A DNA stretch of 50,237 bases, filler included, from Jimgerdemannia flammicorona (lineage: Eukaryota), in the NCBI GenBank assembly GCA_003990765.1. It is 2 parts of 2 records of this genome, joined end to end, with 100 filler letters (N's around TTAATTAATTAA, not from the genome) between each part and the next. Parts side by side here need not be neighbours in the genome. Positions count along the whole stretch, not along the records: positions 25,175 to 50,237 come from RBNJ01000887.1; 1 more part is not named here. The stretch is one strand, 5' to 3'. Positions within the stretch are counted from its first letter, which is position 1. Each line of letters opens with the position of its first letter. This document shows, piece by piece, positions 2,238 to 48,200 of this stretch. The position numbers and the translations under genes were made by a program. The notes beneath the pieces are model-generated. The model did not search any database. It saw only the letters and a list, made by a program, of their open reading frames with translations, and had not been told where the DNA came from.

Positions 2238-2292
2238 AATAAAATATGGTATGTTATCAAGTCCATCCCTACTACTCTATATTTATCTCTTC

Positions 2293-6425: not shown

Positions 6426-6458
6426 TATAAATATCCCTTTTATTTCCTCTGAAATAAA
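6426..6458 (+). promoter_or_regulatory. Family A LTR TATA box (TATAAA) and polyadenylation signal (AATAAA)
   Basis: TATAAAT..AATAAAG at the same position in every complete family A LTR. Confidence 0.6.
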
Positions 6459-6670
6459 GTCAATTCCTCTCAGTATAATACATACAATTTCTTACAAGCA
6501 ATTTAAAGAGATAACAAGACAGTTTAAAGATAAGAAGTTTGAGAACTATAAGACCTTGGGAAGATACTCCAATAAGAACTTGCTTATAACAAACTTGAGT
6601 TAGTCTAAGAGATATATCTTGAAGAGAATCTGACATATTCAAAGGACTCAGCAACCACTACACGACAACT

Positions 6671-6688
6671 TGGTGCCCATTGGCTGGT
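6671..6688 (+). other. Primer-binding site TGGTGCCCATTGGCTGGT (tRNA not identified)
   Basis: 3 nt after the LTR end, begins TGG; identical in element B at 38943-38960. Confidence 0.8.
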
Positions 6689-6793
6689 GATTTAAGATAA
6701 ATCTCTCACTTTTAAGCTGTAAAATGAACAACCACTACAACAACTACCCTGACTACAAGGGTCACCCCTGCAAGAATTCAAGATAAGATAGAA

Positions 6794-12034: not shown

Positions 12035-12337
12035 CAGTATGTCCCATGACCAGCAGGCTATCTGTCTGGACCATTCTCTAAGAGATATGGCACTAGCAAC
12101 TACTCATCTGTGAGACTTTCAAAGCCAGAGGAGTTTGAACTGTCAACTGATTGGTCAAGATCAGAATCAGACCCTTGCTCTATATGAATGGAATGATCCT
12201 GCCAAAATATATAGGGAAGATGCCAGCCCATAAATACCAATTTTCGACTCTTTATCAGAGGTTATGAGATCAGCAAATTTTTCAGGACTGGACCAATGAA
12301 TAAGAATGCTCAAGAAGATCCTTATTCAGGTGGAAGA

Positions 12338-17844: not shown

Positions 17845-20800
17845 CTAACTGATCCCCCTAGGGGGACCCCCCCACTCCCACACCTACTTGATTAAAGACC
17901 ACCAGGCCATTAACTATCTCCACCTATCTACAACTTTGTTCACATATCTCATCCATCAATTGGCACTGACATCTACCTTGGAGACCTCATCCAACCTACC
18001 ACCCTGTCAATATATCTCCCAACAACTCCTCTCATCTTAGCAACCTCTCCTGCAATCTCATCTGTTGCCTCTCTTTAAAAACAAAGAGCCAATGTCCAGC
18101 CAGTCCTACCCATACAGCTAAATTCCACTCTATAGTGAGCTATTTATTACCTATACCTCCCACCAACCTATTCCTCAAATCTTCCCAATGATCTCTCTCC
18201 CCATCTGGCCTCCTCTTCACCTCCAGCCAGTCCCCTACTGCTATCCAAAAGTCCCTCAGAACCTCACACTACCTTCTGCATCAGTAGCACCCATCCCCCC
18301 CCCCCATAGTTCAATAGTCCACCACCAAGCTCTTAGGCAGTACAGCCTCTTAGGAAAATCCACCAATCCTAGTCCCCCTCAAACCACTGGCTTAGAAAGA
18401 GTATTCCAACTTATCTGAGACTGCCTCTCAGCCTAAATCTAATCCCTAGCCAGTTTCATCAGTCTCTTCACCACCCAGACCAGAAAGTCCAAGTGATAAG
18501 CAATATACCACAGCTTGGGAAACCAGTAGATATTCAGAATTGATACCCAGCCTGCTAGAGAGATATGGCGACCTCCCCAACCTCTAAGAGCCTCCTGCCA
18601 GATGGCCACCCTCCTCTCTCACCACACCTGTGGCAAGACAGAACTATATACTGAAAGAAAGATACCAAGATACCTCACCACCTCTCCTACAGAGGCAATT
18701 GTTCCAATGACATCCCCTCCTACTAGCCCATTGCCTAACATCATTGTCTCATACTTATGCCAGTTGAGTTTCACTCCAGAATGTGCCTCATACCATTCCA
18801 CCATCTCCTTGAGTGCCTCAACATCTGTAACCAATTCAAGTCCAACTACCATATAATCTGCAAAAGCCCCCACCTTCTACACCATACCATAGATAGAGAG
18901 CTCTGCCACTTTCTGTCGAATTTTATCTATTAAAAATTCTAATAAAAGGTTATATAGAATAGGAGACAGTGGATCCCCCTAAGGAACTCCTCTCTCCAAG
19001 AGAAATACCAGACCTCAGTGGCCTTTACACAACAGTACCACCCTACTGCCCTCCAACAGACTCAATATAGAAGCTCAAAAGATTGAGAGAACTCCAATTC
19101 TATCCAGCACCTTGCCCAGCCATACTGCCAAACTCAGTCATAGGCCTTCTCCTGGTCCAAAAAGGCTAGTCTCCCATCCAATTCACTGGCCTATACCCCT
19201 TCAATGATGCCATAAACCCAAGCCATCCCATCCCTGATAAGTCTGCCTCCAACAAAGCCCTACTGCTCCTCACCCAGCACCTGTTGGGCAACCTTCTGTA
19301 ATCTTGCTACTAGTAATCATCTTCCTGTCTATATCTAGAAGCATAATTAGCTCTAGTTCTTTCAGTCCTCCCTCCTTCCCTTATCTTTGTATAACAGGTC
19401 CACTAGCCCTAAGTCTTACCCTCCAACCCACTGACCATTCAGAAGAACAAGATTACAGAGAGCCACCATCTCTCCTAATACTCCTGGGATCCTCACCATC
19501 TTCTTCCAAAAGTCCTAAGATAAACCATCCTCTCCTAGTACTATTCCAAGCTTAGTCACTACCAGGACTCTCTGGAACTCCTCCTTTTGGACTGGTAGGA
19601 TCAAATCCCCCAGGCCCTCCACATGTGGTGGCTCCCAACTCTCCAAAGCATCTTCAATTGTATCAGCAACAGCACCCCCTTTCTCCTCACTCTACAGCTC
19701 CCTTCACTGCTCCTTCAACAGCCCCAAGATCTATTGTGTACCATGTATCATTTCCCCATCTATATCCAGGACTCCATTCCATTGCTGCTGCACCCTTCTT
19801 GCCTGGAGGAGCCTTGCCAAGTACCTTGTAGGCCTCTCACCCTCCTCAAGCCCCTGCCACCTCAGCTGAGCTGCCAATCCCTTCATATGCGACTTTTCCT
19901 CCTCTCTCAAAACCTGTTGCAACTCCACCACTTCTAGCTTAGCTTGCCCTAGCCTCCAAATATCCCCCTCTCCAGAGTTTAACAACTCAGTCCATTTTAT
20001 CTGTAATCTAACCAGCTGATTGGAAGCATATCTCACCCTTTTCCTTCTCTACCTCCCAGCCTCTCTACCAACTCTACCCAGTAGTCTCTTGCAGCCTCTT
20101 TCAACTTCATCTACCAGATATTCACTGACAAGCCCTCATGTATCCAGCTAGTAATCCTCACCTGAATGTCCTCTGCCCAAGAGTCCTACAACATCTTCTC
20201 ATTTAGCAGAGAGGAGTTAAAGTGCCAATGTCTGGGTCCATCTCTACTCCCCCCAAACTGCCCCTGCCCTAACAGCTCCCAGTGATCTGACCATGGGCCC
20301 ACTCCACCTCTATAGTCCTCCAAACATCCACACCCCAGCTTTTGGCTGTCAAGACTCAGTCAATCCTTACACCCAGGCCATTCACCCAGTACATATAGAC
20401 TCTCCTGTCTCTCTAATGTGTTCTGCCTATATCCCCTAAGGAGCTAAGGTTCTCTATCTCCTCCCATGTATCCAGGCCACCACTCCTCCCACCAGCACAC
20501 CTTCCTCTATCAGTTCTATCTAACTGTAGATTCTGCACCATATTGAAGTCACCTCCCAAAACATCTACCCCATCCTCCAATAGAGTGCCCTCCTCCAAAA
20601 GACTCTTAATCCATACAATACACTCACCCCTGTCTGCAGGGCAGTAGCAAGAGCCAACCCTCACTGGCTCTCACTCAGGTTGACACCATTCTCCCCATAC
20701 CCAACAGTCTCCCCAGCTCCTGATTCCACATAGATCCCCTTTACCACTCTGTACCAAAATTGCCACTTTGCCAATCCAAGCTGTAGCTCCTCCCCATTCT

Positions 20801-20961
20801 CTAGTCTACTCCATTTGATCCACTTCATTCTCACACCATGCATCCTGCAGCAGAAATAGATCAGCCTCCAATCCCTTAAACCAAGTGAAAATGTTCTTAT
20901 ATCACCCAGATCCCCATAACACATTCACATTCAGAGAGAAAATATTAGTTGTACTGTTTAT
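17845..20961 (-). pseudogene. LINE ORF2 pseudogene (APE + RT)
   Basis: GSCYCPAD, LGGDFNMV, WSDH, GPRHWHFNSSLL, WQGLEEGERPTRY, GDPLSPILY, AFADY, SGVKLNWHKY, VRYLGI; 3' limit approximate. Confidence 0.88.
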
Positions 20962-20998
20962 TGAGAGTAATGTTTAGAAGTAAGGTCTTGCTCATCCT

Positions 20999-23027
20999 CT
21001 ACAAATCCACATTCATCCCCTCCTGAGCCATGTCCAGGTTTTGTTCAGCTGCTAATTCCTTCTCTTCAGCCCTCTTTGCCTCCAATCCAATCAGAAGTTC
21101 AGCCAGCTCTCTATCCTCCTTTTCCTCAAATTCCTCATAATACTCCAGGCAGGCCTCCTGCCAGAGTTATAAACCATGATGTTCTGCCCAGCAGTAGGCA
21201 GCCCTCTCACCAGCAACAACCACCTGTTCAGCCTCTCTCTCCTTATCAACCTCATACCCCTCCTCCTCCAGAAAAATTACCAGCACCTCTGCCTTCAGTG
21301 CCTCCACTACTCTATCACTATATAGAATCTGTGTCCAATACTCCTCACTCATCACTCTCAGGTCCACTTCTCCCAACTCTTCAGCTGCAAGGTTGTTCAT
21401 CATTCAGCTCATCCACAGCAGGTTACCCACCTCCTTCTCTCCTGGTTATGCTGGCCTCCCTGTACTCAGCATTGTGGTATCTGCCTCTGTACTTGTAGAC
21501 TTATCTCACTCCTCCTCTGGGACATCCACCAGCTCATCCTCACCAACCACCACCACCTGTCCCCCTTTCACCACATTGGGAACTCCAAAGTATACTTACT
21601 GGGTACCTCACATCAGTACATCCTCCACCACCCTGCTCTTTGCAGCTGGGCCCTGCCTGATAAGAGGGGGGGTATCTTCCAAGACCTGCTCCCAGACTTC
21701 AAATGTGCCATCTATATAAGAGTTCTTATGTGGCATCTTCCCAGCCCACCTTCTGGCCCTCCTCTATATCCCCTCCTCCCTTACTAGCCCAGATACTTGC
21801 TTCAGCACCCCCAGACTCCTTCTCACCACCAGCATTCTTCTTTGCTCCTCCTTCTATGCTTACCAATAACTCTCTCTGCCTCTTGTAACCTTGAGCCCTC
21901 TCCCACTGCCTCTTGTCAGTGCAAATATATTTCTCATCCATAATCTCCAAATGTGTTGACTCTATATATGTCTTCTAGGCCTTCACCCTCCACTCCACTG
22001 CTTCACTTATCTCCTCCAGTACCTCCAACCGATTCTCCTCCTCCTCCTCACTCTCTTTCACCCTTGACATCTTACAGATAAAGGCCCCCCACAGCATTAC
22101 CAAAGGCCAGTCACTCACCTTCCCTATGGCCTCTCTCTTAGCCAGTCTCAATCTGATATCAATGTCTCTAGTCCTGAAAGTAGTCCCCTCCTACATCTGA
22201 AATCTGATATCAATCATATTACTATACTCTGCTATCACCTCCTCCACCCTCCTCCTCATCTCAACCATTGTTACTATAGGCACCCCCTTCATCAGTAACT
22301 GAACCACTCTGGGGTCCCACCTTAGATAGTATACTATGGGAACCATCACTTTACCTATAGTGACTCCAGTCTTTAATACTTCTTCCAGTGGGCCTGCCTC
22401 CTCAAAACTCACTTTGACTCCCTCCAGTCTCTTCAGAAACTTCACTGAGGCCACTCCTGCCACTTGCTTCAAGGTAATCCCAGGACCATCCTTGCTATTA
22501 CTACTAAGCTCCAGAAGCATAAGGTTGCTATAAACTCTGAGATTGACTTCTTGAGTAATGGTGCCACTACAGCCCTGCCACACCATTGGCCAGGTCCCAC
22601 TTCCTTTTTGGTCCCATCAGCCCAGCCCCCCCATCAGCAGTCACATCTGGATTTTTTTCCAGATCCCAGTCATGCCACCATCAGCAGTCCCCCCCCTACC
22701 CCCAGCTGCTGCTACACCAGCCCTTCCATCTGCCAGCCTAGAAGCTGAACCCCCTGCTTCCACTTCCCTCTGCTTCTCCTTCTCCCCTGCCTAACCTCTT
22801 CAAGATCCAACAGGTCATTCTCCATTCTTCAGTATATCAGCAAAGCTCCTCTCCCTCTGCCCTCCTGCCCTTCCTCCAGTACTACTTCCACTGTCTGAGC
22901 TTCCCTGCCCACTCAGACCACTGAAAGAACCCATCCCCAATCCATACCCTCATCTAATATATTGCCAGTCAAAGACTCCAGGTCCATCTGACCTAGTATA
23001 TACATTGGCTTCTTTGTTGGTTGTTAT
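20999..23027 (-). pseudogene. LINE ORF1 pseudogene
   Basis: Same peptides as ORF1 of copy 1 (SVKFLKRLEGVKVSFEEAGPLEE; FLEEEGYEVDKE; RAAYCW). Confidence 0.75.
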
Positions 23028-25074: not shown

Positions 25075-25174
25075 NNNNNNNNNNNNNNNNNNNNNNNNNN
25101 NNNNNNNNNNNNNNNNNNTTAATTAATTAANNNNNNNNNNNNNNNNNNNNNNNNNNNNNNNNNNNNNNNNNNNN
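25075..25174. other. Assembly gap with artificial linker (N44-TTAATTAATTAA-N44)
   Basis: Exactly 100 bp; the 12-mer places stop codons in all six frames. Confidence 0.97.
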
Positions 25175-25722
25175 AAAAAAAGGATACTCTAACATCGTAG
25201 CACCTATCTACGAGCTACTGAAGAAGGAAACAAAATTCGAATGGACCAAGAAGTACTAAGAAACCTTCAATGAACTCAAGATCAGATTGACCCAAGCATT
25301 TATCCTCAGAAGACCAGATTGGAACCTAGAATTCATCCTACAGACAGATGTAAGTGCTATAGGACTTGGAGCAGTCCTAGCTCAGAAGAAAGATAGACAT
25401 GAATATGTCATCTCCTATGCAAGCTAAGGTACCTGTAGAGCAGAACAGAACTATAAGTCATGCAAGCTTGAATGCTTAGCAGTAGTTTGGGCAGTAGACA
25501 AGTTCCACTACTACCTAGCTGGGAAATACTTTACCATTTAAACAGATCATTCTGCTCTTGTCTGGCTATTCCACACTCTGAACTCCAAAGGAATATATAC
25601 CAGATGGATCTACAGACTGCAAGAGTATGACTGTACTGTCAAACCCTGCTCAGGAAAGACCAATACCAATACTAATGCACTCTCAAGGACACCCCGAAAC
25701 ACTCTCATCAAGACTATTCAAT

Positions 25723-26970
25723 ATGAATAAGGAGCTATACTATGGATTAATCAGCTACCTTGGGCAGTAGAAGATGCCCAACCACCTCAAACCCTGGACA
25801 ATCACCATCATCAACCAGACTTGGAAACAGTTTGAACTAGACAACACTACACTCAGAAAAGGAGGAAAGCTAATAATACCTGAACATAAGAAGTATCAAG
25901 TAATGAAGGAAGTACACAAGCAAGGATACTTAGGAGGAACCAACATATATAACAAAGCAAGAAGAACCATATAGTGGTCCAAGATAGAAGAAGACCTATG
26001 CCAATTTGTCAAAGGGTGTGACAAGTGTCAAAAACAGAAACAAGATCAGTAAGACCAGGCACCTGGGTTATCAAGAATTGAGCCTATCTCCTTCTACTAT
26101 ATTGCAATGGATATTATTGGGCCACTACCAGTAACACCATCAGGAAACTGCTATATTATAGTTATTATAGACCTCTTCACCAAATAGATAGAGGTGGGAG
26201 TATTACAAAAAGTCAATGCTCTCTCTATAGCCAACTTCCTGTACTGAGAAATCATCTGCCACTACAAGACACCAAAGCAAATCACAACAGACCATAGAAC
26301 AGAATTTATCAATGGATTCTACAAAATAATATATCAGAAATACAAGATATAGTACATCAAGACTACTGCATACCACCCTCAAGAAAATGGACAGATAGAG
26401 AGAACCAACAAAACCCTCAAGAACATCCTAGCAAAGATCTCAGAGACATATGAGAATTAGGATAACTATCTCCCAACTGCCCTCTCTATTCTATGAGATA
26501 TATGGTCACAGAGCACACACTTTACCCCAAGGGAGCTACTCTTCAGAGAAGAAGATTCTGATGGAACCTCAGCCACAAATCTAGACCTAACTTGGAGATA
26601 GGTTGATGCAGAAATCCGGAGACTACACCAAATCAGGAAGAAGGCTGAAGATTATATCACCAAGTCATAAGTACTGATAAGGAAGAATGCAGAAAAGAAT
26701 CACAAGATCTTAGAATCTATCTGAATTGGAGAAAAGGCTCTACTGTATTGAAATATGGTAGAAGCCTCATAGTTATGAAAACTAGAGCCCAAATGGGAAG
26801 GACCCTTCTATGTGCAAGATATCAAGGGAACCACCTTCTGGCTTAGAAAAATCTCAGAGACTATGCTGTCCACCACAGTATATAGGAACAGACTCAAGAA
26901 GGACTACAAACCTATACAAGAGAAGCAAAATGTAATAACTACCTATGAGGTTCTAGTCCATGAATCATAA
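25723..26970 (+). pseudogene. A2 integrase, 416 codons from ATG to TAA, with internal stops
   Basis: MNKELYYGLISYL..HKQGYLGG..CDKCQ..MDIIGPLP..KWEGPF..VLVHES*. Confidence 0.9.
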
Positions 26971-27523
26971 CAGTATGTCCTGTGACCAGTAGGCTATCTG
27001 TCTGGATCATTCTCTAAGGGATATGGTACTGGTAACTACTCATCCATGAGACTTTCAAAGTCAGAGGAGTTCAAACCACCAACTGATTGGTCAAGATCAG
27101 AATCAGGCCCTTGCTCTATATGAAGTGAGCAACCCTTCACCATCATGCCAAAATACAAAAGGAAGATGTCAGCCTATAAATACCACTTTTCGACCCCTTA
27201 CCAGAGATTATGGGATCAGCAAATTTTCAGAACTGGACTAATGAATAAGGACACTTGAGAAGATCCTTATTCAGGAGGAAGATGTAACAGTGACCCCAGA
27301 ATGATGACATCAGCACAGGAGACAGCCTTTCCTTACAAGCTACCAGATTGGAGTACAAGAAGATTATATGGCATATGAGATGAGCAATGATGACCAACTG
27401 TAAGTCATTGTGACCACAGTATAGTATCTTGAGGAATATAAAAGAAGGATCAAGGAACTGCAGTAGCAGTAACCAACAAGACCCATCAATCCCAAAATAG
27501 CCCAAAGACTTACCATAAATGAA

Positions 27524-28336
27524 ATACCTGCTGCCCACTAAACCTCAAGGTCAAGGAACCACCAAGGTACCTTGGCTGAAGAAAGGATGTTCCAAGACAT
27601 CAGAAGAGCTATAAGGACCTGCTCAAGAAGGACTCCTAGTGTCAACCTGGGTACTGGTGACCCTTATCACTATATTCTCTACTGCTATGAAATGGAAACA
27701 AGGATCACTATTGCTACCGAATACCTCTAAATATGGCAGGAATATGAAATAGGAAACCTCCTCTGCTGGGAGTTCCCACAGACCAGTACTCAAAAGCTAC
27801 AAGATGCCACTCCCATGGATATACATGAGACAAGAACAGCTAAGAAGATCCATCAGATCTTCAGATATGCACCATAGTTGATCTCTAACTTGGAGTATGT
27901 TAGAGTCTCAGATTTCAGAGACCTATCATCCTACCATATCAATGCACTAGAAGTCAGGGTGGCTACAGAAGCCTAGTCTACTATCACCCTCAATAGTGAT
28001 GAAGTAGAAGACTTCTGGCACCCCATCCTCCAAGACAACTCAGACCAATTCCTGTAAGAATTGATCTCAGTATTCCAAGGCCCAAGCATCCAGATTAGAC
28101 CTCCCCAAGACCCCACATTTGTCCCCTATTTGGTGGAAGAGAACCTTATAGACTGGAGAGCTCCAGATCTCCTTGTTCCTGCTACTGCCAAATGTGATAA
28201 TGTTATTGGAAATAACATCATCCTGTATGACCTATATAATCTTGATGAAACATTTGTGAACCTTATCTCCTTTGAAGATATCCTGACCTCTGATGACAAG
28301 GATGAAGCCCCCATGGTCTTAAACATTCTGCTCTAA
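27524..28336 (+). pseudogene. U3 accessory ORF, 271 codons start to stop (start decayed ATG>ATA)
   Basis: 813 nt; stops fall where other copies have CAA/CAG/TGG. Confidence 0.75.
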
Positions 28337-28345
28337 GTCCCCTGT

Positions 28346-28510
28346 TACACTGGATAATGCCAGCACCAGTATTCTGAGGTAACACTGGATAATACCAGTA
28401 CCAGCATTCTGAGATAACACTAGATAATACCAGTATTGGTATTCTGAGGTGATGTAAAATTGTTCCAGCACTGGCATTTTGATATAATACTGAATTATAC
28501 CAGCATCCTG
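28346..28510. repeat. 35-bp tandem repeat array in U3 (about 4.5 units)
   Basis: Unit approximately AACACTGGATAATACCAGCACCAGCATTCTGAGGT; about 2.5 units in A3 LTRs. Confidence 0.8.
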
Positions 28511-29071
28511 AACCTGTACAACCATCAGTACCGACTCTGGAACTTAGTAGTTTTAGTTATTAGAATTTATATTTAGCTTTATATCTTAGCAATCATTGAA
28601 TTATATTTTGTATAAATACCCCTCTTATTTCCTCTGAAATAAAGTCAGTCAAGTTTACTTACACACACTTTCTTGCAAGTAATCTAAGAGATAACAAGAC
28701 AGTTAAAGATAAGAAGTTTGAGGACTATAAGACCTTGAGAAGGCACTCCAATAAGAACTTGCTTATAACAAACTTGAGTTAGTCTAAGAGATACATCTTG
28801 AAAAGAATCTGGTATATTTGAAGGACTCAGCAACCACTACATGACAATATATATCTTATATAAGGTAAGGTCTTTTCTACTTAAGCTCTAGTTTTTATGA
28901 TTATGAAGCTTTTACTATATTTTAATATAGTAGGACTTTATCTCCTATCTTGATAATCTTTAAGAGCTTGTAAATTTTTTCTGCATTATTCTATTATAGA
29001 GTCTGTATCTTAGTTATATAATCCTCACTCTTCTTCCTGATTTAGTATAGTCTCTATATCTCTGTATCCAT

Positions 29072-30588
29072 TGTCATGTAGTGGTTGCTGAGTCCTTCAA
29101 ATATGCCAGATTCTCTTCAAGGTATATCTCTTAGACTAACTCAAGTTTGTTATAAGTAAGTTCTTATTGGAGTGCCTTCCCAAGGTCTTATAGTCCTCAA
29201 ACTTCTTATCTTTTAAACTGTCTTATTATCTCTTAAATTGCTCACAAGGAATTGTGTATAAGTAAACTTGACTGACTTTATTTCAAAGGAAATAAGAGAG
29301 GTATTTATACAAAATATAATTCAATGGTTGCTAAGATATAAAGCTAAATATAAATTTCAATAACTAAAATAAAATGCCAGAACAGGAAAAACTGCTAAGT
29401 TTCAGTATCAGCACTGATAGTTGTACAGGTTCAGGATGCTGGTATAATTTTGTATCACATCAGAATACTGGTACTGGTATAATTTGGTATCATATCAGAA
29501 TACTGGTGCTGGCATAATTTAGTGTAATCAAAGGACTTTAGAGCAGAATGTTCAAGACCATAGGGGCTTCAACCTCATCAGAGGTCAGGATGTCTTTGAA
29601 GGAGATAACGTCCATGAATTTGTCATCATTACATATATTACATGAGATGATATCATCACTGATGATATCATTATATTCAGCAGTAGTGGGAACAAGGAGG
29701 TCTGGGGCTGAGGTTCTCTTCCACAAAATAGGGGACAAATGTGGGGTCTTAGGGAGATCTAACCTGAATGCTTGGGCCTTGGAATACTGAGATTAATTCT
29801 TACAGGAATTGGTCTGAGTTGTCCTGGAGGATGGGATGCCAGAAGTCTTCTACTTCATCACTATTGAGGGTGATAGTGGACTGGGCTTCTGTAGCCACTC
29901 TGGCTTCTAGTGTATTGATATGGTGGGCTGACAGATCTCTGAAGTCTGAGACTCTAACATACTCTAAGTTGGAGATCAACTATAGTACATGTCTGAAGAT
30001 CTGATGGATCTTCTTAGCTATCCTTGTTTTGTGTATATCTATGAGAGTGGTATCTTGTAGTTCTTGAGTGCTTGCCTATGAGAACTCCTAGCAAAGGAGG
30101 TTTCTTATTTCATACTCCTGCCACATTTAGAGGTATTTAGTAATAATAGTGATTCTTATTTCTATTTCACAGTAGTAGAGGATATAATGATAAGGGTTAC
30201 TAGTATCTAGGTTGATACTAAGAATCCTTCTTGAGCAGGTCCTCATGACACTTCTGATGTCTTGGAATATTGTTTCTTTAACTGAGGTACCTTAGTGGTT
30301 TCTTGACCTTGAGGTTTGGTGAGCAGCAGGCATTTTGTTTGTGATAAGTCTTTGAGCTATTTTGAGATTAGTGAGTCTTGTTGGTTATTGCTACTGTGGT
30401 TCTTTGATCCTTCTTTTATATTTCTCAAGATATCCATACTGTGGTTACAATGACTCACAGTTAGTTATCATTACTTATCTTATAGTTCAGGTAGTCATGC
30501 CATATGATCTTCTTGTATTCCGATCTGGTGGCTTGTAAGGAAAGGCTGTCTCCTGTGCTGATGTCATCATTCTGGGGTCACTATTACA
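29072..30588 (-). repeat. A3 3' LTR (U3 ORF at 30333-29538)
   Basis: Reverse complement of the family A LTR; PPT at 30589-30598. Confidence 0.93.
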
Positions 30589-30901: not shown

Positions 30902-32146
30902 TTATAATTTACAGACTAGAACCTTATGGGTAGTCATTATATTTTGCTTCTCTTATATAGGTTCATGATACTTCTTGAGTCTGTTCCTATGTACCATGGT
31001 AGGCAGTATGGTCCCTGAGATTTTTCTAAGCTAGAAGATAGTTCTCTTGATATCTTGTATATAGAAGGGTCCTTCCTATTTGGGCTTCAGTTTTCATGAC
31101 TATGAGGCTTCTTCCATATTTCAATATAGTAAGATCTTTTCTCTGATTTGGATGGGTTCTAGGGTCTTGTGATTCTTTTCTACATTCTTTCTTATCAGTG
31201 CTTGTAACTTGATGATGTAATCTTCAGCCTTCTTCCTAATTTAGTATAGTCGCTGGATTTCTGCATTGACCTATCTTCAAGTTAGATCTAGATTTATGAC
31301 TGAGGTTCTATCAGAATATTCTTCTCTGAAGAGTAGTTCTTTTGGGATAAAGTGTGTGCTCTGTGACCATATGTCTCATAGAACAGAGAGGACAGTTGGG
31401 AGGTAGTTATCCCAATTCTTATATATCTCTGAGATCTTTGCCAGGATGTTCTTGAGGGTCTTATTAGTTCTCTCTGTCTGTCTATTTTCTTAAGAGTGGT
31501 ATATAGTAGTCTTGATGTGCTGAATCTTGTATTTCTGATACATTATTTCATAGAATCTATTGATAAATTCTGTACTATGGTCTGTTGTGATTTGCTTTGG
31601 TGTCTTATAGTAGCAGATGATTTCTTGGTATAGGAAGTCAGCTATAGAGAGGGTATTAGCTTCTTGTAATGCTCCTGCTTCTATCTATTTGATAAAGAGG
31701 TCTACAATAACTATAATATAGCAGTTTTCTGATAGTATTACTGGTAGTGACCCAATGATATCTATTATGATGTGATGGAAGGGGATAGGTGCAATTCTTG
31801 ATGACCTGAGTACTTGGTCTTGCTGATCTTATTTCTATTTTTGGCACTTGTCACATCCTTTGACAAATTGGTGCAGATCTTCTTCTATTTTGGGCCACTA
31901 TATAGTTCTTGCCTTATTATATATGTTGGTTCCTTCTAGGTATCCTTGCTTATATACTTCCTTCATTACTTGATACTTCTTATATTCAGGTATTACTAGC
32001 TTTCCTCCTTTTCTGAGTATAGTATTGTCTAGTTCAAACTGTTTCCAAGTCTGGTTAATAATAGTGATTATCTAGAGTTCAAGATAGTTGAGCATCTTCT
32101 ACTGCTTAAGATAGCTGATTAATCTATAGTATAACTTCTTATTCAT
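30902..32146 (-). pseudogene. A3 integrase, separate frame, 415 codons with stops
   Basis: Starts at CATGAATAA (minus strand); CDKCQ and KLKPK*EGPF motifs. Confidence 0.88.
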
Positions 32147-37757: not shown

Positions 37758-38468
37758 CCATATATTTCTATATAATATCTTTATTAGATAATAAGATTCC
37801 TTGAGAACTTTCTTCTCTGAATAGTATTTCTCAAGAGATAAAATGCAGATATCCTAGAGAGCAGATGATACTATTAGCAGATAGTAATCTCAGTTTTTAT
37901 AGTTATTGCAGATCTTAGTAATAATATTCTTAAGAGTCTTATTGATTCTTTCTACTTATCCATTTCTCTGAGAGTGATAGACATATACTGAATCTTGTAT
38001 TTCTTATAGAGAACTACTTTATGAATTCTGTTTCTCTATCTATAGTTACTTGCATTGGAGTTTTAAATTAGCAAATAATTTCTTTATAGAAAAATTAACA
38101 ATTGACTGTATATTGACTTTCTTGAGTAATCCTACTTCTATCTATTTTATAAAAAGATATACAATAATAATGATATATCAGTTATCAGTAAAGTCAAGAG
38201 TGAGAGCTAATTATATCTATTGTAATGTGAGTAAATAGTACTAATTCTATATATACTAATCTTGGAGTCTAATTTTATTAGTCTTATATATTTCTGTTTC
38301 TGGTATTTGTTATAGATCTTGATAAATTATCTGATATCTTTCTCTATTTCTGACTACTACATTATTCTTCTTGCCTTATCATATATATATATTTCTTCTA
38401 GATAGTTAAGTTTATATATTGATTTCATTGCTTGTTCATTCTTATATTTAGATATAACTAGTATATAG

Positions 38469-38939
38469 TGTGATGGCTGATCCGAATTAGTAATATGAAA
38501 CAGGGGAATTAGACATTTGATCGTGGTACCTAAATCTGATTCCCAATATAGCTTAGCCTCATAAATAGCAGCCACATTCCACAAAGTGCAGAAACTTTAA
38601 TGTTTGCAAAGATTTAGGAGATGTTAGAATCTTTGTGATCAGCGAAATCTTAGCAGATGTTAAAAGATTCAGCACTTACGAATTGAGCCATTACTTAGCT
38701 ACCTTATAGTTAGCAAAACTTGTATAAATAACCCAGTATCTTAGAGTGAATAAACCTCAGATCAAAATAGTTCAAAGCAAAGAGATAGCAAAGGAACTAG
38801 TAAGCCTGCAGGCAGATACACTTTGAACTCACCCACTCTCCCCTACAACTCAAAGGACTCTGCGAGAGTTAGAGAAGATCAAGTTTTCAAGATACAGAAA
38901 TCTGACATACTTTCAAGAGTAAGCATCCACTATGTTACA
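38469..38939 (+). repeat. B 5' LTR (471 bp)
   Basis: Same length as, and colinear with, 44731-45201; TATAAA at 38723, AATAAA at 38749. Confidence 0.96.
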
Positions 38940-39059
38940 ACTTGGTGCCCATTGGCTGGTGATTCAAGATGAATCCCTCACTTTCAAGCTAAATAACAAA
39001 CAACTATCCCTACCCAAACAACCATACAAACTGAGCCCCAATACCCAGACAAGATAGAT

Positions 39060-42000
39060 ATGAGACCACCAGTATTCCATAGATATACCTCAGATGAATC
39101 AATCATCACCTTCATTGATAATTTTGAGCAGTATGTCACTGTAAGGATCCTGACAGCAGCACAGCAAGTAGCCCTCATGCCCTTCAGCCTATGAGGTCCT
39201 GCCAGAGCAGCATTCACAGCCACAACCTATACAGGAAATGATACTGATACTATACTGACAGTACAGAAGACCTGGCTCTGAAATACATATTATACAGATG
39301 AGATCAAGCAAGCTCTGAAGGATCAGCTCAATACAACATACCAAGGAATAAGTAAGGATCCAAACACATTCTATACCAGAATTCAATATCAGATAATTCT
39401 CGTAGATTATACTGCTGCTACATATCTAAGATCAAGTAGCTGAAGCAACCTTCATGAAAGGAGTCTACCCAGAAATAGCTATGGCCATCTGCTTATCACC
39501 AGTGATTCTGGATCTGCTACAGAAGGTCACCTATGCTCAGCAATACTGGATAGCCAGACACCCACAAGACTATACAATAGAGAGAGTTACAGGAGTCAGA
39601 ATCGAAGTATCTAAGTCAACCAGTGTGATCTCCACCACAATGATCAATCGAAACACACCTCAGTCCAAAGCTATAGAGCAGCAAAAGAACAGTGACCCTT
39701 TGGAGGAACTTACCAAGAGGTTCGCAGAAATGACTGCCCACTTGGGGGATGTAGTAAAGGAGATCAGAGGAAGAGACTGCTGCTCTGTCCAGAAGTTTGC
39801 TGCCACCTCAGACAAGAAGAAAGGCACCTGCAATACTTGTGGAGAAGAAGGCCACTACTCCTATGAATGCATGAGTGAAACTAAGTGCAAGGCTCAACCA
39901 AGCAATGCTATATAAAACAAGGAGCAGGCCAATACAATTACCTTTGAGAAAATTGGAGATTCTGATGAAGAAGAATGGGAGGCCTATCCTGCTCAGACTA
40001 CTAAGAAGGATGTTCACAAGGAACCCTACAAGAGACCACCAGGAAGACTCAAGAAGAACCCAGTAGAAAAGCAGATGGAAATGGTCACCAAAAGCCAAGC
40101 TGAAGAGATGGACCAAGATATGAAGCTTGAGCAAGTAGTTCAAGATACATATTATCCAAGGAACTACCCCAGCCAGCAAAGGAGAAAAAGAAAAGAAACT
40201 TTGCAAGATCAAGACATTCAAGTATGATATCTTCAAGGATCTTAGCCAACAAAAGATCAATGCAACCTTTGGTCAGCTCGCAGAAATCCCAACATTTAGA
40301 TAATAAATGAGGTTCAGACTCGCCGAAACAACTAAGGAGTAAGGATGGAAGATAACCAAGACCAATAATATTCAAGAGGACTCAGGAGAAGAAAGTGAAG
40401 ACAATCGCAAAACCTCTGCCTATGCAATATGCCAAATCGAAGATAGAATCTTTGAAGCCATCATTGATACTGGAGCAGGAGAATGCCTTCTCAGCAAGAA
40501 GACAGCAGACTGCCTAGGTTGAAAGGTTGAAGAAGCAACCAAGTTGGTGTTTGTTACAGCAGATGGCACAAGAGCCACCCCTCTGGGAAAGATCCAAGAT
40601 GTCCCCATCAAGATTAGAGGAGCAACCATCCCAGTAGATGTAATCATAACCAATGCCACAAACTATGACATCCTTATTGGCAATCAATAGCTTCACAAAG
40701 CCAGGGCAGTAATCGACCTCAATGCTCAGAAGATGCAAATCACCTATTGGGGACAGAAGATACAAATTTCCATCAATATCAACAAAGGAGTCTTGCCTGA
40801 TATGGAGGAAGAAGAGAGCGAGCAGGAGGAAGCTTATATGGTAACCATTCCAAAGAGGAAAGTAGGATGGATGAGTGAAGAAGAATGGTGCAAGAAGATC
40901 ACAGAAGGCTATGCACCACAAGGAGTCTGTCCTCACAGGATCAAGATATACTGTATGGAGCATGTCAATGATTGCTATCAATGCACCATCAGAATCAGAA
41001 AGATTCACTAGGAAAGAAGACAGAAGGCTCTTGAAAAACAGGTTAGAGAAGAAAAGAAGGAGGAAGATGACAAACCACCAGCCCTCCTGGAGAACAGTGA
41101 TGATGAAGAAATCAATGTCAAGATTCGAAGAACCCACCCTGATGCAGTTCTGCCAGAATACAAGTTAGAAAATGCAGCTGGAATAGACATTGTTACAGTA
41201 GAAGAAGTCATACTGGAACTCCAGACAACCACCCTACTTGTAACTGGACTGGAAATGACCATTCCAAAAGACCATGTTGGGATCCTCAAGACAAGAAGCA
41301 GCCTGGCCAGAAGCAAAATTATGATTGAAGGAGGAGTCATCGATTCTGACTATACTGGAGAAATCCTGCTCATTGCTAGAAATCACAATCCTATAATCCC
41401 ATTCCCAGTCAAGAAGAAGGACTGATTGGCATAGATGCTGATCTTCCCAATCCTACAACCAAGGATTATAGAAGTCAAGAATCTGGAGGAAATGAAAAGA
41501 GGAAAGAAAGGATTTGGATCCATAGGAAGAGGAGTATTCACCAGTACCAAGATCACCAAACTGAAGCATAAGAAGGAGAAAAATACAAACAAGCACAGCT
41601 ATACCATTGGAAATGAATTCCCACTCAAGGGGGAACTCAAGAAAATACTCCATGAATTTGAGGATGTCCTTGCCACAGACTTCAAGGATATCAAAGGAAA
41701 GACTCCACACTACTATTATGAGGTAGATACCGGAGACATCAAACCAATTTACCAGAAGGCAAGACCTGTCCCACCAGCTTACCGAGAATGGCTCAGAGAA
41801 GAAATCAAGCAGATGGAAGAAGCTGGTATTATCAAAGAAGCCAGCAGTCTCTGGTCTTCACCAGTTGTACTAGCCCTGAAAAAAGGAAGCAACCCTGGAG
41901 AATTTGCCCTAAGACTCTGTGTTGACTACAGAAAGCTCAATGTAGTTATCAAGAAGGATTGCCAACCACTGCCCCTCATCAGTGACATTCTTATAACACT

Positions 42001-43048
42001 GGGAGACGAAGCACAGTACTACAGCACCTTAGACTTATACTCAGGATTCCACCAAATCGGACTCACAGAGATGGAAAGTGAAAAGTCAGCCTTCATCACT
42101 CCAGACAGAACCTACATCTACCTATAAATACCATTCAGGATGTACAATATACCAGCAAGCTTTCAGCAAATGATGAACAAAATCTTCCACTATAATATAG
42201 GAAGATGGATGATGGTCTATATTGATGATGTAATCATCTACAGCAAGATACCTGAGGAACATCTGCAGCACATATGGCAGATAATGGAGAGACTAAGACA
42301 ACATGGCCTTTACATCAAACCCAAGAAGTACAAGTTTGCAGAAATCGAGATCTCCTACCTTAGCCATATTATCAATCAAGATGAAACATACATGGACCCC
42401 CTCAAGATACAAGTAGTAGCAGCATACCCAAGGCCCACCACTGTTACAGAAGCCCAAGCCTTCATGGGACTTGCCTCCTACTATCGCAGATTTATTAGAG
42501 GATTCTCCAACATTGCAAGTCCAATCTATGAACTCAATAAGAAGGATACCAAGTTCCAGTGGACTGGCAGACAACAAAAAGTATTTGATAAACTCAAGAT
42601 CAGACTAACTCAGACACCCATCCTCAGATGACCCAATTGGACTCAAGAATTCATTCTGCAGACAGATGCAAGTGCACAGGGACTAGGAGTAGTCCTAGCT
42701 TAGAAAGAAGACAAAAAAGAGTATATCATTGCATACCTTAGCCATGGAACCTGAGGAGCTGAAAAAGAATATGAATCCTACAAGTTGGAATGCCTTGCAG
42801 TTATTTGGGCTGTAGAAAAGTTCCACTACTATCTGGCTGGAAGACACTTCACCATTCAGACAGACCACTCAGCTCTTACCTGGCTACTGACAACCAGACA
42901 ACCCAAAGGAATCTATGCTAGATGGATAATGAAGCTACAAGCCTATGATGTAACCATTGTACACTGCCCTGGAAGAACAAATTCCAATATAGATGCTCTC
43001 TCACAGATACCCCAAAACACTGTCAACCAACAAATCAATCATGAATAA
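39060..43048 (+). pseudogene. B gag-PR-dUTPase-RT-RNaseH pseudogene
   Basis: CNTCGEEGHYSYEC; IIDTGAG; AAGIDI, TRSS, GGVIDSDYTGE, RGKKGFGSIG; RLCVDYRKLN, YIDDVIIY; LQTDAS, NIDALSQ; ends INHE*. Confidence 0.93.
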
Positions 43049-44244
43049 AGAACTTTACTATGGAATTATCACATATCTGAGATAGCGAAAGATATCCCAA
43101 CATCTGGAAGAATGGATGCAAATGATTATCAATAGAACATGGAAACAATTTGAAACTGACAGATAAATACTGAAGAAAGGAAAACTACTAGTCATACTAG
43201 AACATAAGAAGGAGCAAAGCAATGAAATCAGTATATGAACTTGACCATCTAGGAGGAATGAATACATATGATAAGGCAAGAAGAACAATATGGTGGCCAG
43301 GAATGGAGGAAGATATCAGACAATTTGTCAAAACTTGTGACAAATACTAGAAACAGAAGCAAGACCAATGAAACCAAGCCCTGGGATCAGCATATATAGA
43401 ACCAGTACCATTTGCCCACATAGTAATGGATGTAATCAGCCCTCTACCCTTGACCCTGACTGGTAACTGATATATCATTGTCATCATAGACCTTTTTATG
43501 AAGTGAATAGAAGCAGGACCCCTCAAGGAAGCCAATGCACAGTAAATTGCCAATTTCTTCTACAAAGAAATCATCTGCCAGTTTAAGACCCCAATACAAG
43601 TAACTATAGATAGAGGAACAGAATTCATAAACCAGTTCTTTGAGGTTCTCTACAAGAAGTACAAGATCCAGCACATTCAGACCACAGCCTATCACCCCCA
43701 AGGAAACAGATAAGCAGAAAGGACCAATAAGACCCTCAAGAATGTTATTGCCAAGATCTGTGATAACTATGAAAACTGGGATCACTATCTGCCAATAACA
43801 TTATCTGCTCTCTGGGATATCAGATCACAAAGTACCCACTTTACTCCTTGGGAAATGCTGTTCAGAGAAGAAAGTTCTTGAGAAACCCTATCATCTAATA
43901 GAGATACTATATGGAGACATATGGATGGAGAAATACAGAGGCTACACTAAATCAGAAAGAAGGCTGAGGATTACATAATGAAAGCACAGGCACTACAACA
44001 GAAGAATGCAGAAAAAACCCACAAGCTCTTAGAGATTATCAAGATAGGAGACAAAGTCCTAGTGTATCAGAACATGGTAGAAGCCTCATGGTCATGAAAA
44101 CTAGAGCCTAAGTGGAAAGGACCTTACCTTATACAAGATATAAAAGGAACCACCTTTTGGCTATGAAAACTCTCAGGTACAATCATCCCCACTACCATCT
44201 ACCAAAACTAACTTAAGAAGTATTATGACCAGTCAACGAAGTAA
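43041..44244 (+). pseudogene. B integrase, separate frame
   Basis: MNKELYYGIITYL..HLGG..CDK..MDVISPLP..TIDRGTEF..AERTNKTLK..KLEPKWKGPY..LKKYYDQSTK*. Confidence 0.9.
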
Positions 44245-44752
44245 TACTGCTGCTCTCAGAATTACTAGTGCAGCCCAGTGAACCATCAAAAGACAGTGGT
44301 GTCCCACTGAGCCACCAACAATGGAAGAATCCTTTGATAGTATCTAGAGTATAGTGCAAACACACTTATTATGAATCTCACATTTCAAGGCCTACCAGAA
44401 CTGAACTGAGTTCCAGGAATACTTCAAGTTAGGACAGCTACTGAATTCAAGACCGAAGATGGGAAAAGAAGACTGGATCAGAGAATATCAGCTCTCCTAC
44501 ATTCAGATCACAATTGCAAAAAGAGTGCACAAGTTATTCAAAGACAATGAGTCAGCCTTAGCCCATTTCTGAGGAGTAACCACCTCAGGAGACTTTGGAT
44601 ATATCAAGAGATAATATTGGAAGGATGTAATGATACAAATTGCATAGTATAAGGAAATACAAATCATAGAAGCCTGGGAATTCGAGTGAATAGAATGCTC
44701 CCAAGATGAATCACCTATTCAGAAGGAAGATGTGATGGCTGATCCAAATTAG
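44225..44752 (+). pseudogene. Putative ORF3 (accessory gene, about 175 aa) between integrase and the 3' LTR
   Basis: One frame reads FQEYFKLGQLL..ITIAKRVHKLFKD..GVTTSGDF, resembling the family A LTR ORF; 8 internal stops; start codon uncertain. Confidence 0.6.
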
Positions 44753-45201
44753 TAATATGAAACAGGGGAATTAGACATTTGATCATGGTACCTGAATCCA
44801 ATTCCTAATATAGCTTAGTCTCATAAATAGCAGCCACATTTTGCAAAGTGTAGAAACTTTAACATTTGCAAAGATTTAGGAGATGTTAGAATCTTCGCGA
44901 TTAGCAAAATCTTAGCAGATGTTAAAAGATTCAGCACTTATGAATTGAGCCATTACTTAGCTACCTTATAGTTAGCAAAACTTATATAAATAACCCAGTA
45001 TCTTAGAGTGAATAAACCTCAGATCGAAATAGTTCAAAGTAAAGAGATAGCAAAGAAACTAGTAAGCCTGTGGGCAGATACACTTCAAACTCACCCACCC
45101 TCCCCTGCAACTCAAAGGACTCTGCAAGAGTCAGAGAAGATCAAGTTTTTAAGATACAGAAATCCGACATACTTTCAAGAGTAAGCATCCACTATGTTAC
45201 A
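44731..45201 (+). repeat. B 3' LTR (471 bp)
   Basis: Direct repeat of 38469-38939. Confidence 0.96.
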
Positions 45202-48200
45202 ATAGCTTTTCTTTCTTTAATATTTCTCTATTAGTTTTGAATTATTTCTATATTCTGTTAATAATTATTTATATTCATTCTTTTAGATATTGAGACATCT
45301 TTTACTATTTCAGATAAGTAATAATTCTATAATAGAGCTCCTTATTTATAGTTGGATTACTAGTTGAGAATTCTTCAGAGTATTTATGAGAAGATATCTA
45401 TATTGATATTGGTTCTTCTAGGATAGTATACATATGATAGTTATATTATAGACTTATAACTTTATAATCCATCTGATATATATATATTTCTTTGGGTTAT
45501 CTGATAGTTAGTAGCTAAGTATAGATTATATAGTCTATCTATATAGTGAAGTATCTTCTAGTAAGATAGTAGTGAAACTTTTCTATAGTTCAGATAACTG
45601 TAATATATTCTAACTTATATAATTTATATTCTTTTTTAGCTCCTCAGGTTTCTCTACTGAGATATATAATGATATACTCTACTTTATCTTTTTTCTAAAC
45701 TAAGACTACTTCTAGTCTTTATGTACTTATATATATCTATAAGATGAATTCCTGAGTCCAATTAGATCTTCTCAGAATAAATACCTGGGTCAGTCTAATC
45801 TTGAGTTTATTGAATATTTTCTATTATCTATTAGTCTATTAAAACTTGATATCTTTTCTATTGAGTTTATAAATTAGATCTATAATATTAAAAAATCCTC
45901 TAATAAATCTATATTAATATGAGATAAGTCTCATAAAGGCTTGAGCTTTTATAATAGTAGTAGGTCTTAAATATACTACTACTGCTTGAATCTTGAAAGA
46001 GTTTGTATATATTCCATCTTAATTGATAATGTAGCTAAGGTAAAAAATCTCAATTTCTACAAACTTGTACTTCTTGAGCTTGATATATAGACTGTGATTT
46101 CTCAATTTCTCCATTATCTGTTAAATATACTATAGATACTCTTCTGATATCTTATTATAGATAATTATATTATCTATATAAATTATTATCCATTTTCTCA
46201 TATTTACTAGAAGATTTTATTTATCATTTGCTGGAAACTTACTAAAGTATTACATATTCTAAATAGCATTAGCAGGTAGATATCAGTTCTATCTGGAGTA
46301 ATGAAGGCTGATTTTTTACTTGCTGCTTCTGTGAGACTGATTTAGTAGAATTCTGAATATAAATTCAAGGTGCTGTAATATTATACTTTATCTCTCAGAG
46401 TTATGAGAATATCACTGATAAGAGATAGTAGTTAGTAATTCTTCTTAGTAATCAGATTAAGCTTCTTATAATCAGTACAGAGTTTTGAGAAAAATTCTCC
46501 TAGTTTACTTCCTTTCTTTAAAGCTAGTATAACTGGTAAAGCCCAGGGGTTACTGGTTTTTTTTTTGATAATATTAGCTTTTTCTATCTGTTTGATTTCT
46601 TCTCTAAGCCATTTGTAGTAAGCTGATGAGATGAGTCTTGTCTTCTGATAGATTGGTTTGATATCTTCTATATTTATATTATAGTAGTAGTATGGTATCT
46701 TTTCTTTAATATTCTTAAAATTGGTAGTAAGAATATCTTTAAATTTATAGAGTATCTTCTTGAGTTTCTTCTTGAGTGGGAATTTATTTTCAATAGTATA
46801 ACTATACTTATTTATAGTTTTCTCCTTCTTGTAGTTTAGTTTGATAATCTTAGTATTAATGAGTACTTCTCTTTCAGTAGATCTAAATTCTTCCCTTCCT
46901 CTTTCTGTTTCCTCCAACTTCTTGACTTCTATGATCTTTAGCTAAAGGACCAGAAAGATTAATATCTGTATCAGTTAGTCCTTCTTCTTGATTAAGAATA
47001 GAATTGTAGGATTGTAGTTTCTAGCAATAAGTAGTATTTCTCTAATATAGTCTAAATTGATGACTTCTCCTTTAATAGTAATATTGCTTTTAGCTAGACT
47101 ACTTCTTGTCTTGAGAATTCTAATATAGTCTTTTGGAATAGTTATCTCTAGACCAGTTGTAAGTAGGATAGTTGTCTAAAGTTTGAGTGCAGTTTTCTCT
47201 ACTATAGCAATATATATTCTAGCTAAATTTGCTAGCTTATATTATATCAAAATAAATTTTCTAAATTTTGATCTTGATTTTTTCATCATAATCATTATCT
47301 TCTAGAAGAGCAAGTAGTTTATTATTATCTTCTTTCTTCTTTGTCTTTTCTTATTCTTTGAGGGCCTTTTCTCTTTTTTGATAATAGATTTTCTTTACTC
47401 TAATAGTATACTTATAATAGTTATTGACATGCTTTATACAATAAATTCTGATCTTATGTAGGCAGACTTCTTGGAATATATATCTTTTAATAATCTTATA
47501 CCAGTCTTCTTTACTCATCTATTCAATTTTTTTTTTTTTTTTTTTTTTTTTTCTAAGTGGTCACCATATAAGCTTCTTCTTACTCACTTTCTCCTTCCTC
47601 TATCTTGAAGAGTACTCTTTTGTTGATATTAATAGAAATTTATATCTTCTATCTATAGTAAATAATTTATATCTTCTAAGTATTCAGGTTAATTATTACC
47701 CTAGCTTTATGAAGCTACTGATTGCTAATAAGAATATCATAGTTGGTAGTATTGATTATGATCACATCTACTAGAATAGTTACTCCTCTAAAATTGATAG
47801 GAATATCTCAGATCTTTCTCAGAGATATGGCTCTTATACTATCTACTATAATAAATACTAACTTATTGTTTCTTCAACCTCCCAACCTAGGCAATCTGCT
47901 GTCTTCTTATTGAGAAGATATTCTCTTACTTTAGTATCAATGATGACTTCAAAGACTTTATCCTTAATCTGATAGATTATATAGACAGAGGTCTTGCAAT
48001 TGTTTTTACTCTCTTCTCTAGAGTCTTCTTGAACATTATTAGTCTCAGTTATCTTCCAATATTAGTCCTTAGTTGTCTTAGTAAGTTCTAATCTTATTTA
48101 CTATCTAAATATGAGAATTTCTACTAACTGACAAAAGGTTATATTGACTTTTTATTAGCTGAGATCATTGAAGATATCATACTTGAAAGTTTTGATCTTA

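Follow-up and report, generated by a model that had tools for sequence, protein, structure and literature searches.

The stretch of DNA analysed here (the window, 50,237 nucleotides (nt) in length) is from Jimgerdemannia flammicorona (GenBank assembly GCA_003990765.1) and consists of two parts joined by filler, with positions 25,175 to 50,237 coming from RBNJ01000887.1. It contains five copies of a dUTPase-bearing Ty3/gypsy-like long terminal repeat (LTR) retrotransposon with a polycistronic genome. Self-comparison of the window places the copies in two families, A (three copies, A1, A2 and A3) and B (two copies, B and B′). The A copies are ~84% identical to each other, B and B′ are ~73% identical, and identity between the two families is 65–69%. 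The lineage has an open reading frame (ORF1) for gag with a CCHC zinc knuckle, protease (PR), dUTPase, reverse transcriptase (RT) and ribonuclease H (RNase H, or RH), a second (ORF2) for integrase (IN) and, in many members, an unnamed ORF3. A Pfam search of the stop-masked window frames finds the zinc knuckle, aspartic protease, dUTPase, RT and RNase H, followed by Integrase_H2C2 and rve; both the window copies and intact relatives have their domains in the order PR-RT-RNase H-IN, where IN lies downstream of RT. All window copies are dead and are fossils; in-frame stops in IN number 14 in 415 codons in A2, 17 in 411 in A3, 11 in 406 in A1 and 13 in 360 in B.

The subject of this analysis is the junction between the RNase H and IN coding regions. 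The gag-PR-dUTPase-RT-RH frame ends in ...(Q/N)(H/Y)E-TAA, and the frame one base on (+1) from it opens at an ATG and reads MNKELYYG(L/I)I.YL. The start and the stop share the octamer ATGAATAA, which is present in A1, A2, A3 and B with a c or t as the preceding base; in B′ the corresponding sequence is TATAAATAA (~45342–45350, minus strand), within CTATAAATAAGGAG at 45338–45351. The octamer on its own is not unusual, as there are 10 matches in the window with 5.04 expected. The signal lies in its position, since alignment of the five copies shows the junction at one common column in all of them. Because this column is common to A and B, at the identity given above, it is shared by two long-diverged families. 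The ORF1 stop is 39 nt past the RNase H D-A-L-S-R codons, exactly so in 7 of 8 window-clade sequences, and this tail is poorly conserved, yet it ends at the IN ATG every time. Motif positions, frames and the aligned column all agree with an earlier note on this DNA, which had described an RH/IN start-stop overlap in four of the copies and a decayed form of it in B′.

Only in A2 and A3 does the ATG frame hold the entire IN, and the interruptions there are point stops alone. Two small indels, not reported in the earlier note, alter the picture in the other copies. A 10-nt deletion directly past the junction of A1 makes IN land in the RNase H frame, which is an accident of the deletion. In copy B a 1-nt insertion ~165 nt past the junction throws the remaining IN into a third frame; positions 43041–43217 are in the ATG frame and 43207–44286 are in the next. 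Copy B is itself a clean nested insertion in B′, whose integrase is cut ~150 nt past the junction. ATAG flanks copy B on both sides (38464–38468 and 45203–45206) and is a target-site duplication, and the copy B LTRs run TGTGATGG...GTTACA, with TG...CA ends.

The stop-masked A2 IN sequence was used as a query, and 47 proteins of 245–781 amino acids (aa) were found, 22 of which were fetched. One of them, P0003, is an intact protein with 81% identity to the A2 IN. The homologous Met, in the context M[NDE]x.l.Y, is residue 1 in 20 of the 22 fetched IN homologues and residues 19 and 8 in the other two. An alignment of 21 of the fetched IN proteins was then used on metagenome contig DNA; 537 relatives were confirmed and 80 of them were kept. 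By IN profile, the IN frame of the 32 best of these 80 loci is open for no more than 67 residues ahead of the match, many of these loci being cut by the contig end. Among the 48 more distant loci, 31 have 100–1419 residues upstream of IN in the same ORF, which is the canonical fused form. A search of IMG/VR gave no close relative, only 7 loci at 30% identity or less.

Eighteen metagenome loci include the IN N-terminus (16 distinct, as L003/L004 and L025/L026 are near-duplicates), and all 18 have an ATG at the homologous IN codon. In all 18 a long ORF in another frame ends from 5 nt before to 8 nt after that ATG, although the L013 contig begins 175 nt upstream and the upstream frame is broken in L014, L024 and L025. 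Counted from the A of the IN ATG, the ORF1 stop codon begins at +1, +5, +7, +8, −2 or −5. Against the ORF1 frame, that of IN is +1 in 6 loci and −1 in 12. The six junction types are listed in Table 1; that of the window clade is cATGAATAR, with IN at +1. In four further loci with an IN match from profile position 52–63 (L009, L030, L031 and L036) no N-terminal segment could be recognised (tblastn E > 0.5), and these loci are uninformative on the junction. Where the contig allows, the upstream ORF is 1281–1746 aa and displays the CCHC, PR, dUTPase, RT and RNase H domains, with no IN domain in Pfam; the downstream ORF2 is ~410–430 aa (~418 aa in the case scanned with Pfam) and has H2C2 and rve. 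L016 (84%) and L011 (78%) are the nearest rows in the IN tree to A and B, respectively; both are near-intact and have the same ATGAATAA junction, and the A2 IN is 81% identical to the intact L016 IN.

These relatives bear out the earlier note's view that the lineage encodes IN as a stand-alone ORF, as they keep ORF1 and IN in separate frames with a stop/start overlap. Young intact copies with RH and IN in one continuous frame would, by the note, have counted against this view; the opposite was found, with the two ORFs separate at the lengths given above. An intron that restores the frame, which the note had raised as well, finds no place here: a GT-AG intron joining RH and IN is excluded for the ATGaaTAR clade of the window, where the stretch from the RNase H catalytic-motif codons to the stop has a GT count of 0 in 7 of 8 sequences and one GT in copy B. 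By comparison of these sequences the split IN is shown to be ancestral and kept in intact relatives, and the same relatives support a functional role for it in this lineage.

Protein-level controls point the same way. The best fused (longer) protein, in a search limited to longer proteins, shows 34% identity (197 bits), versus 36–81% for the stand-alone forms. Among the 120 best matches to an RT-RH query, an IN domain is present in none of the 17 dUTPase-bearing ORF1 homologues with 40–51% identity and at least 90% coverage, and three more dUTPase-bearing matches, P0110 and P0114 (both partial) and P0135 (32% identical), are also without it. Six proteins that do carry both dUTPase and IN are more distant from the split-lineage ORF1 (36–40% identity), and four of the six have a chromodomain. 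An exhaustive profile search found 26 stand-alone proteins (244–635 aa) among the best 150 cluster representatives, with the match starting at profile position 1–2. At the position extrapolated to correspond to the Met, 15 of 16 fused representatives have R, E, Q, L or A and one has M. Long high-scoring proteins of 2000–3500 aa, such as P0202, were considered as fused close relatives and rejected; they match from ~profile position 17 and represent a different canonical fused family. Three other proteins, P0086, P0088 and P0113 (43–45% identical to ORF1), have a NUDIX domain (PF00293), no dUTPase domain and no IN domain in the same ORF, and the split-IN layout may extend beyond the dUTPase clade to these NUDIX relatives.

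An IN tree of 27 rows was made by a quick method, with duplicates and fragments left out and 10 fused loci hand-picked. The split lineage forms one clade against these 10 fused outgroups, with a Shimodaira-Hasegawa-like approximate likelihood ratio test (SH-aLRT) value of 99. Junction types cluster inside the split clade and the frame relation switches several times. IN proteins across the clade differ by up to ~60%, and the six junction variants are conserved.

Table 1. Positions of the element copies and their features in the window, and of junctions, stem loops and ORF3 in metagenome relatives (L numbers)
Sequence	Feature	Position	Strand	Remarks
Copy A1	element	~4651–13906	+	self-comparison
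Copy A1	junction	10800–10807	+	motif search, alignment
Copy A1	IN remnant	10800–12031	+	in RNase H frame through 10-nt deletion
Copy A2	element	25179–28849	+	5′ part lost in N runs 25075–25118 and 25131–25174
Copy A2	junction	25723–25730	+	
Copy A2	IN	25723–26967	+	whole IN in ATG frame, 14 point stops
Copy A3	element	36993–29072	−	self-comparison
Copy A3	junction	32139–32146	−	
Copy A3	IN	30914–32146	−	whole IN in ATG frame, 17 point stops
Copy B	element	38469–45202	+	self-comparison
Copy B	5′ LTR; 3′ LTR	38469–38940; 44731–45202	+	472 bp, 93% identical
Copy B	ORF1 remnant, gag(CCHC)-PR-dUTPase-RT-RNase H	38941–43048	+	Pfam and translation; decay put zinc knuckle in another frame
Copy B	pol tail, 39 nt	43007–43048	+	after D-A-L-S-Q codons 42992–43006; TAA at 43046–43048
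Copy B	junction ATGAATAA	43041–43048	+	IN ATG 43041–43043, pol stop 43046–43048; IN +1
Copy B	IN remnant	43041–44286	+	H2C2, rve; 13 in-frame stops
Copy B	ORF3 remnant	44225–44686	+	overlaps IN 3′ end; tblastn with L011 ORF3, 69% identity over 154 aa
Copy B′	element	49582–45203, continuing 38463–37758	−	self-comparison
Copy B′	junction TATAAATAA and first IN part	45203–45350	−	remainder at 38461–37803 across B insertion
L001, L003, L004, L005	junction ATGA			IN −1
L006, L011, L016, L023	junction ATGaaTAR			IN +1
L007, L008	junction ATGn5TGA			IN +1
L010, L013, L014, L017, L024	junction T(A/G)ATG			IN −1
L018	junction TGAtcATG			IN −1
L025, L026	junction ATGgatcTAG			IN −1
L010	stem loop, T(A/G)ATG clade	1805–1835		
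L013	stem loop, T(A/G)ATG clade	130–165		L014, L024 same place
L017	stem loop, T(A/G)ATG clade	1323–1349		
L003	ORF3	5960–6652		
L006	ORF3	7189–7704		
L010	ORF3	3063–3782		
L011	ORF3	5795–6256		
L013	ORF3	1396–2004		
L026	ORF3	7232–7639		
L007	ORF3	from 2998		
L017	ORF3	from 2635		
L018	ORF3	from 2436		
L023	ORF3	from 2134		

How IN is expressed from such a layout may be considered next. Coupled termination-reinitiation is the explanation that we regard, with modest confidence, as the probable one. Ribosomes finishing ORF1 on the full-length RNA would reinitiate at the adjoining AUG, and the product would be a free IN starting Met-Asn-Lys-Glu-Leu-Tyr-Tyr and less abundant, in molar terms, than the ORF1 product. 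In that case, the control of stoichiometry that other elements exert at gag/pol would now be at RH/IN, and IN would enter the particle, or reach the complementary DNA (cDNA), by binding and not within Gag-Pol. That IN is made as a free protein, and the route by which it comes to the particle, are what we infer from this arrangement. Reinitiation is favored because the ATG and the stop remain side by side even where IN has switched between the +1 and −1 frames. The stop-start offsets of −5 to +8 nt, out of frame, fit the published limit of ~20 nt or less for reinitiation, and an A is present at −3 of the IN ATG in all six window-clade sequences. The earlier note had listed termination-reinitiation, +1 frameshifting and a subgenomic RNA as possible mechanisms; the comparison favors the first, and the other two become less likely.

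Several observations weigh against reinitiation. In a scan of 150 nt upstream, the motif TGGGA of TURBS (a site for ribosome binding upstream of termination) is found at 1 of 18 junctions, at −135, and the calicivirus TURBS, with its complementarity to 18S rRNA, is rejected as a general element. Predicted folding in the window clade is no better than in shuffled sequences, either in the 90 nt upstream (z −0.7 to +2.3) or downstream (z −1.35 to +1.0), and no cis element that would promote reinitiation after an ORF of 4–5 kb was identified in this clade. ORF3 starts 20 to ~400 nt before the IN stop, unlike tight coupling, and this position hints at another route, e.g., a subgenomic RNA, for at least one downstream gene and possibly for IN too. 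Heptamers of slippery form are present in the overlap zone of some loci, CCCTTTC and AAAGGGA in L013, L014 and L024, and CCCAAAC in L026. It should also be noted that most of the stand-alone proteins were predicted by gene callers of the prokaryotic type, for which every protein has to begin at a start codon, and that only the shared homologous position of the Met is informative.

The T(A/G)ATG clade displays a strong stem loop that ends 6–10 nt upstream of the junction (z −2.6 to −4.1 versus shuffled sequences). L010 and the L013 group differ in sequence here yet retain the pairing. Five of the 13 pairs have changed on both sides, but the RNAalifold covariation term is unsupportive, with six sequences only. 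In L013, L014 and L024 the slippery-form heptamers lie within the stem. A search of sequencing runs listed one soil-metagenome DNA run, with a word share of 0.08, and no RNA run.

The foremost alternative is that a separate mRNA (spliced, subgenomic or from an internal promoter) or internal ribosome entry makes IN and ORF3, and that the adjacency of stop and start is a matter of genome compaction. We regard this as unlikely, but it has points in its favor. Spliced RNAs serve for the expression of gypsy-type env and foamy-virus pol, the start of ORF3 well within the IN ORF makes a route without coupling possible, and the window clade is without a motif or structure that promotes reinitiation. 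With a separate mRNA, though, the position of the ORF1 stop would be unconstrained, yet all 18 loci, with their six junction types and two frame relations, have it between −5 and +8 nt from the ATG, and the poorly conserved ORF1 tail extends just to the ATG. The scarcity of GT noted above between the RNase H motif and the junction also leaves 7 of 8 window-clade sequences without a splice donor there.

Programmed frameshifting, which would yield a Pol-IN fusion and package IN within the polyprotein, is in our judgment improbable. In the window clade it would be a +1 shift at GAA-UAR-R, of the stop-stimulated type, in which the U is skipped and AAR or AGA is read; in the −1 clades it would be a −1 shift. 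A one-base skip at the stop codon does enter the IN frame at its third codon, and the IN frame is open for 1–67 codons upstream of the ATG. The slippery-form heptamers of L013, L014, L024 and L026, and the stem loop just upstream of the T(A/G)ATG junction, could also be read in this way. But the direction of the shift must then have switched between +1 and −1 several times within one clade, and a frameshift has no need of the ATG, yet none of the 18 loci lacks it at the homologous codon, where 15 of 16 fused relatives differ. The +1 shift heptamers of Ty1 and Ty3 are CUU-AGG-C and GCG-AGU-U; both are absent from all 18 junction segments, scanned over up to 120 nt upstream and 30 nt downstream of the ATG. 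No slippery-form heptamer is found in 5 of the 9 scanned −1 loci (there are 12 such loci in all), the four named above being the only ones to have them, and no downstream structure was seen in the −1 loci; the stem loop is upstream of or around the candidate slip site, not downstream. The overlap zone is merely 1 codon in L005 and 6 in L017. The −1 frameshift criteria are inapplicable to the window itself, where IN is at +1.

That the split arose as an artefact of decay, or through an inactivating mutation common to the copies, and has no function, as the many stops of the window copies and the indels near the junction in A1 and B might suggest, is highly improbable, because intact relatives with an ORF1 of 1281–1746 aa and a complete IN ORF have the same layout, the near-intact L016 (for A) and L011 (for B) carry an identical junction octamer, and six junction variants are conserved over a clade in which IN is so divergent.

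The third ORF, of ~135–240 aa, is found in most relatives; the A family, as represented by L016, seems to be without a long ORF3. In most cases its ATG lies just past the IN motif H-R-N-R-L-K-x-Y-H. The translated aa sequence shows weak conservation in a helical core (..FL..YF...AI..L.GV..), often ends in an acidic tail and matches no Pfam family. An AlphaFold model is all-helical, with a predicted local distance difference test (pLDDT) score of 81.7, and gave no match in PDB at E ≤ 0.001 and no usable match in the Atlas. ORF3 may take part in the expression or packaging of IN.

Other features of the window concern decay and neighboring repeats. The differences between A2 and its intact relative are C>T or G>A in 154 of 228 cases, 56 of these 154 at CpG, and decay is mostly of this type in A1 and A2 (compared with L016) and in B (compared with L011). 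This fits methylation-driven or repeat-induced point mutation (RIP)-like mutation of repeats in the host. Past the A1 3′ LTR, positions 13062–13898 repeat 5822–6659, the start of the internal region, with 89% identity, which suggests a tandem LTR-internal-LTR-internal arrangement or a recombinant. A lone B-like IN fragment lies between A2 and A3 (28850–29080, minus strand; 82% identity to 43916–44142). Positions 1–3947 and 18737–22685 are two copies of another repeat, 67% identical, with a strong excess of C on the plus strand (GC skew ~−0.45, GC 0.48). The minus strand of the copy at 1–3947 has an RVT_1 reverse transcriptase with no LTR-element domains close by, and the repeat is probably a non-LTR retrotransposon. 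The region 16001–18000 is very AT-rich (GC 0.22) and has Pfam matches in no frame.

The element shares with Ty3 and Tf1, canonical Ty3/gypsy elements (Metaviridae), TG...CA LTRs, a short duplication of the target, a zinc knuckle in gag and the PR-RT-RNase H-IN order, as well as an IN with an H2C2 zinc finger, a DDE core and a GPY/F region. Unlike Ty3 and Tf1, its IN is an ORF of its own that starts at the ORF1 stop and is not part of the Pol polyprotein; the region from gag to RNase H is one unbroken ORF without a gag/pol recoding site, and many members have a third ORF. It is of the Ty3/gypsy type by its LTRs, domain set and domain order, and lacks the usual feature of an IN within Pol. Chromoviruses have a chromodomain at the IN C-terminus, and a Pfam search found none in the window frames or in ORF2 of L004. 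Foamy viruses make Pol independently of Gag, the whole of Pol coming from a spliced mRNA and being packaged by binding. A replication enzyme is uncoupled from Gag fusion in both systems; here it is only IN, and apparently by translation restart. A dUTPase between PR and RT, as here, has been reported from some fungal Gypsy elements, PosPlaTy3-5 of Postia placenta and elements of Phanerochaete and Tuber (PMC2864245). Those elements are described as having a single Gag-Pol ORF or two ORFs (gag and pol), and the passages of that paper on their structure make no mention of a separate IN.

Overlapping stop and start codons are known from a non-LTR retroelement, SART1, in which UAAUG couples the two ORFs (Kojima et al. 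2005, as cited in PMC10275272 and PMC5972666). As in SART1, stop and start codons here overlap before the downstream ORF of a bicistronic RNA, the route of translation here being a predicted one. The differences are that in SART1, a non-LTR element, the junction is between ORF1 and ORF2 and a downstream RNA structure is required, whereas here an LTR element has the junction at RH/IN and no such structure was detected. Reinitiation after long ORFs is described, also for fungal viruses, with the stop and start ~20 nt or less apart, often sharing bases, and out of frame (PMC10275272). In fungal RNA viruses the hypovirus CHV1 has UAAUG and the victorivirus HvV190S has an upstream pseudoknot (PMC10275272, PMC2699510). 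The junctions here resemble both in having the stop and start overlapping or a few nt apart and out of frame, and the stem loop upstream of the T(A/G)ATG junctions resembles the victorivirus arrangement as described there; the present element differs in being a retrotransposon and in that the window clade shows no upstream structure. Cauliflower mosaic virus uses transactivator-dependent reinitiation on a polycistronic RNA (PMC10275272). The Caulimoviridae are reverse-transcribing relatives of Ty3/gypsy and likewise have several closely spaced ORFs on one long RNA and reinitiation after long ORFs, but they are plant viruses without an integrase and with a dedicated transactivator; a transactivator-like role for ORF3 would be pure speculation. 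The other cases of reinitiation reviewed are caliciviruses, influenza B and pneumoviruses, and the retrotransposons named in the parts of these reviews drawn on here are non-LTR only, SART1 and LINE-1 (PMC10275272, PMC5972666). The earlier note had asked for a prior description, and full-text literature searches, with subscription journals and the Repbase and GyDB records, in which a curator may have noted it, outside their scope, found no account in which an LTR element has its IN as a separate ORF or uses reinitiation; passages in PMC5911963, PMC4427930, PMC6431247, PMC3248453 and PMC13468544 had no bearing on it.

A diverse clade extending beyond the window, known mostly from metagenomes, encodes IN as a separate ORF with putative translational coupling. 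It is quite possible, if short of probable, that this widespread and so far undescribed Ty3/gypsy-like clade has uncoupled IN from Gag-Pol and expresses it by stop-start coupling on a polycistronic genomic RNA. In textbook retroviruses and LTR retrotransposons IN is delivered as the tail of Gag-Pol, and the level of the enzymes is set at gag/pol by frameshifting, readthrough or degradation. In the present lineage a single ORF runs from gag to RNase H, and the sole translational break precedes IN. Annotation pipelines that expect a single Pol ORF will call such elements broken or invent introns. If IN is made by reinitiation, this would be another way of keeping IN scarce, and the way in which a free IN finds the cDNA or the particle would be directly testable in a natural system. 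It would also be the first termination-reinitiation in an LTR retroelement, which would take the mechanism beyond non-LTR elements and RNA viruses, and it would provide a natural example of an IN that reaches the replication complex outside of a polyprotein.

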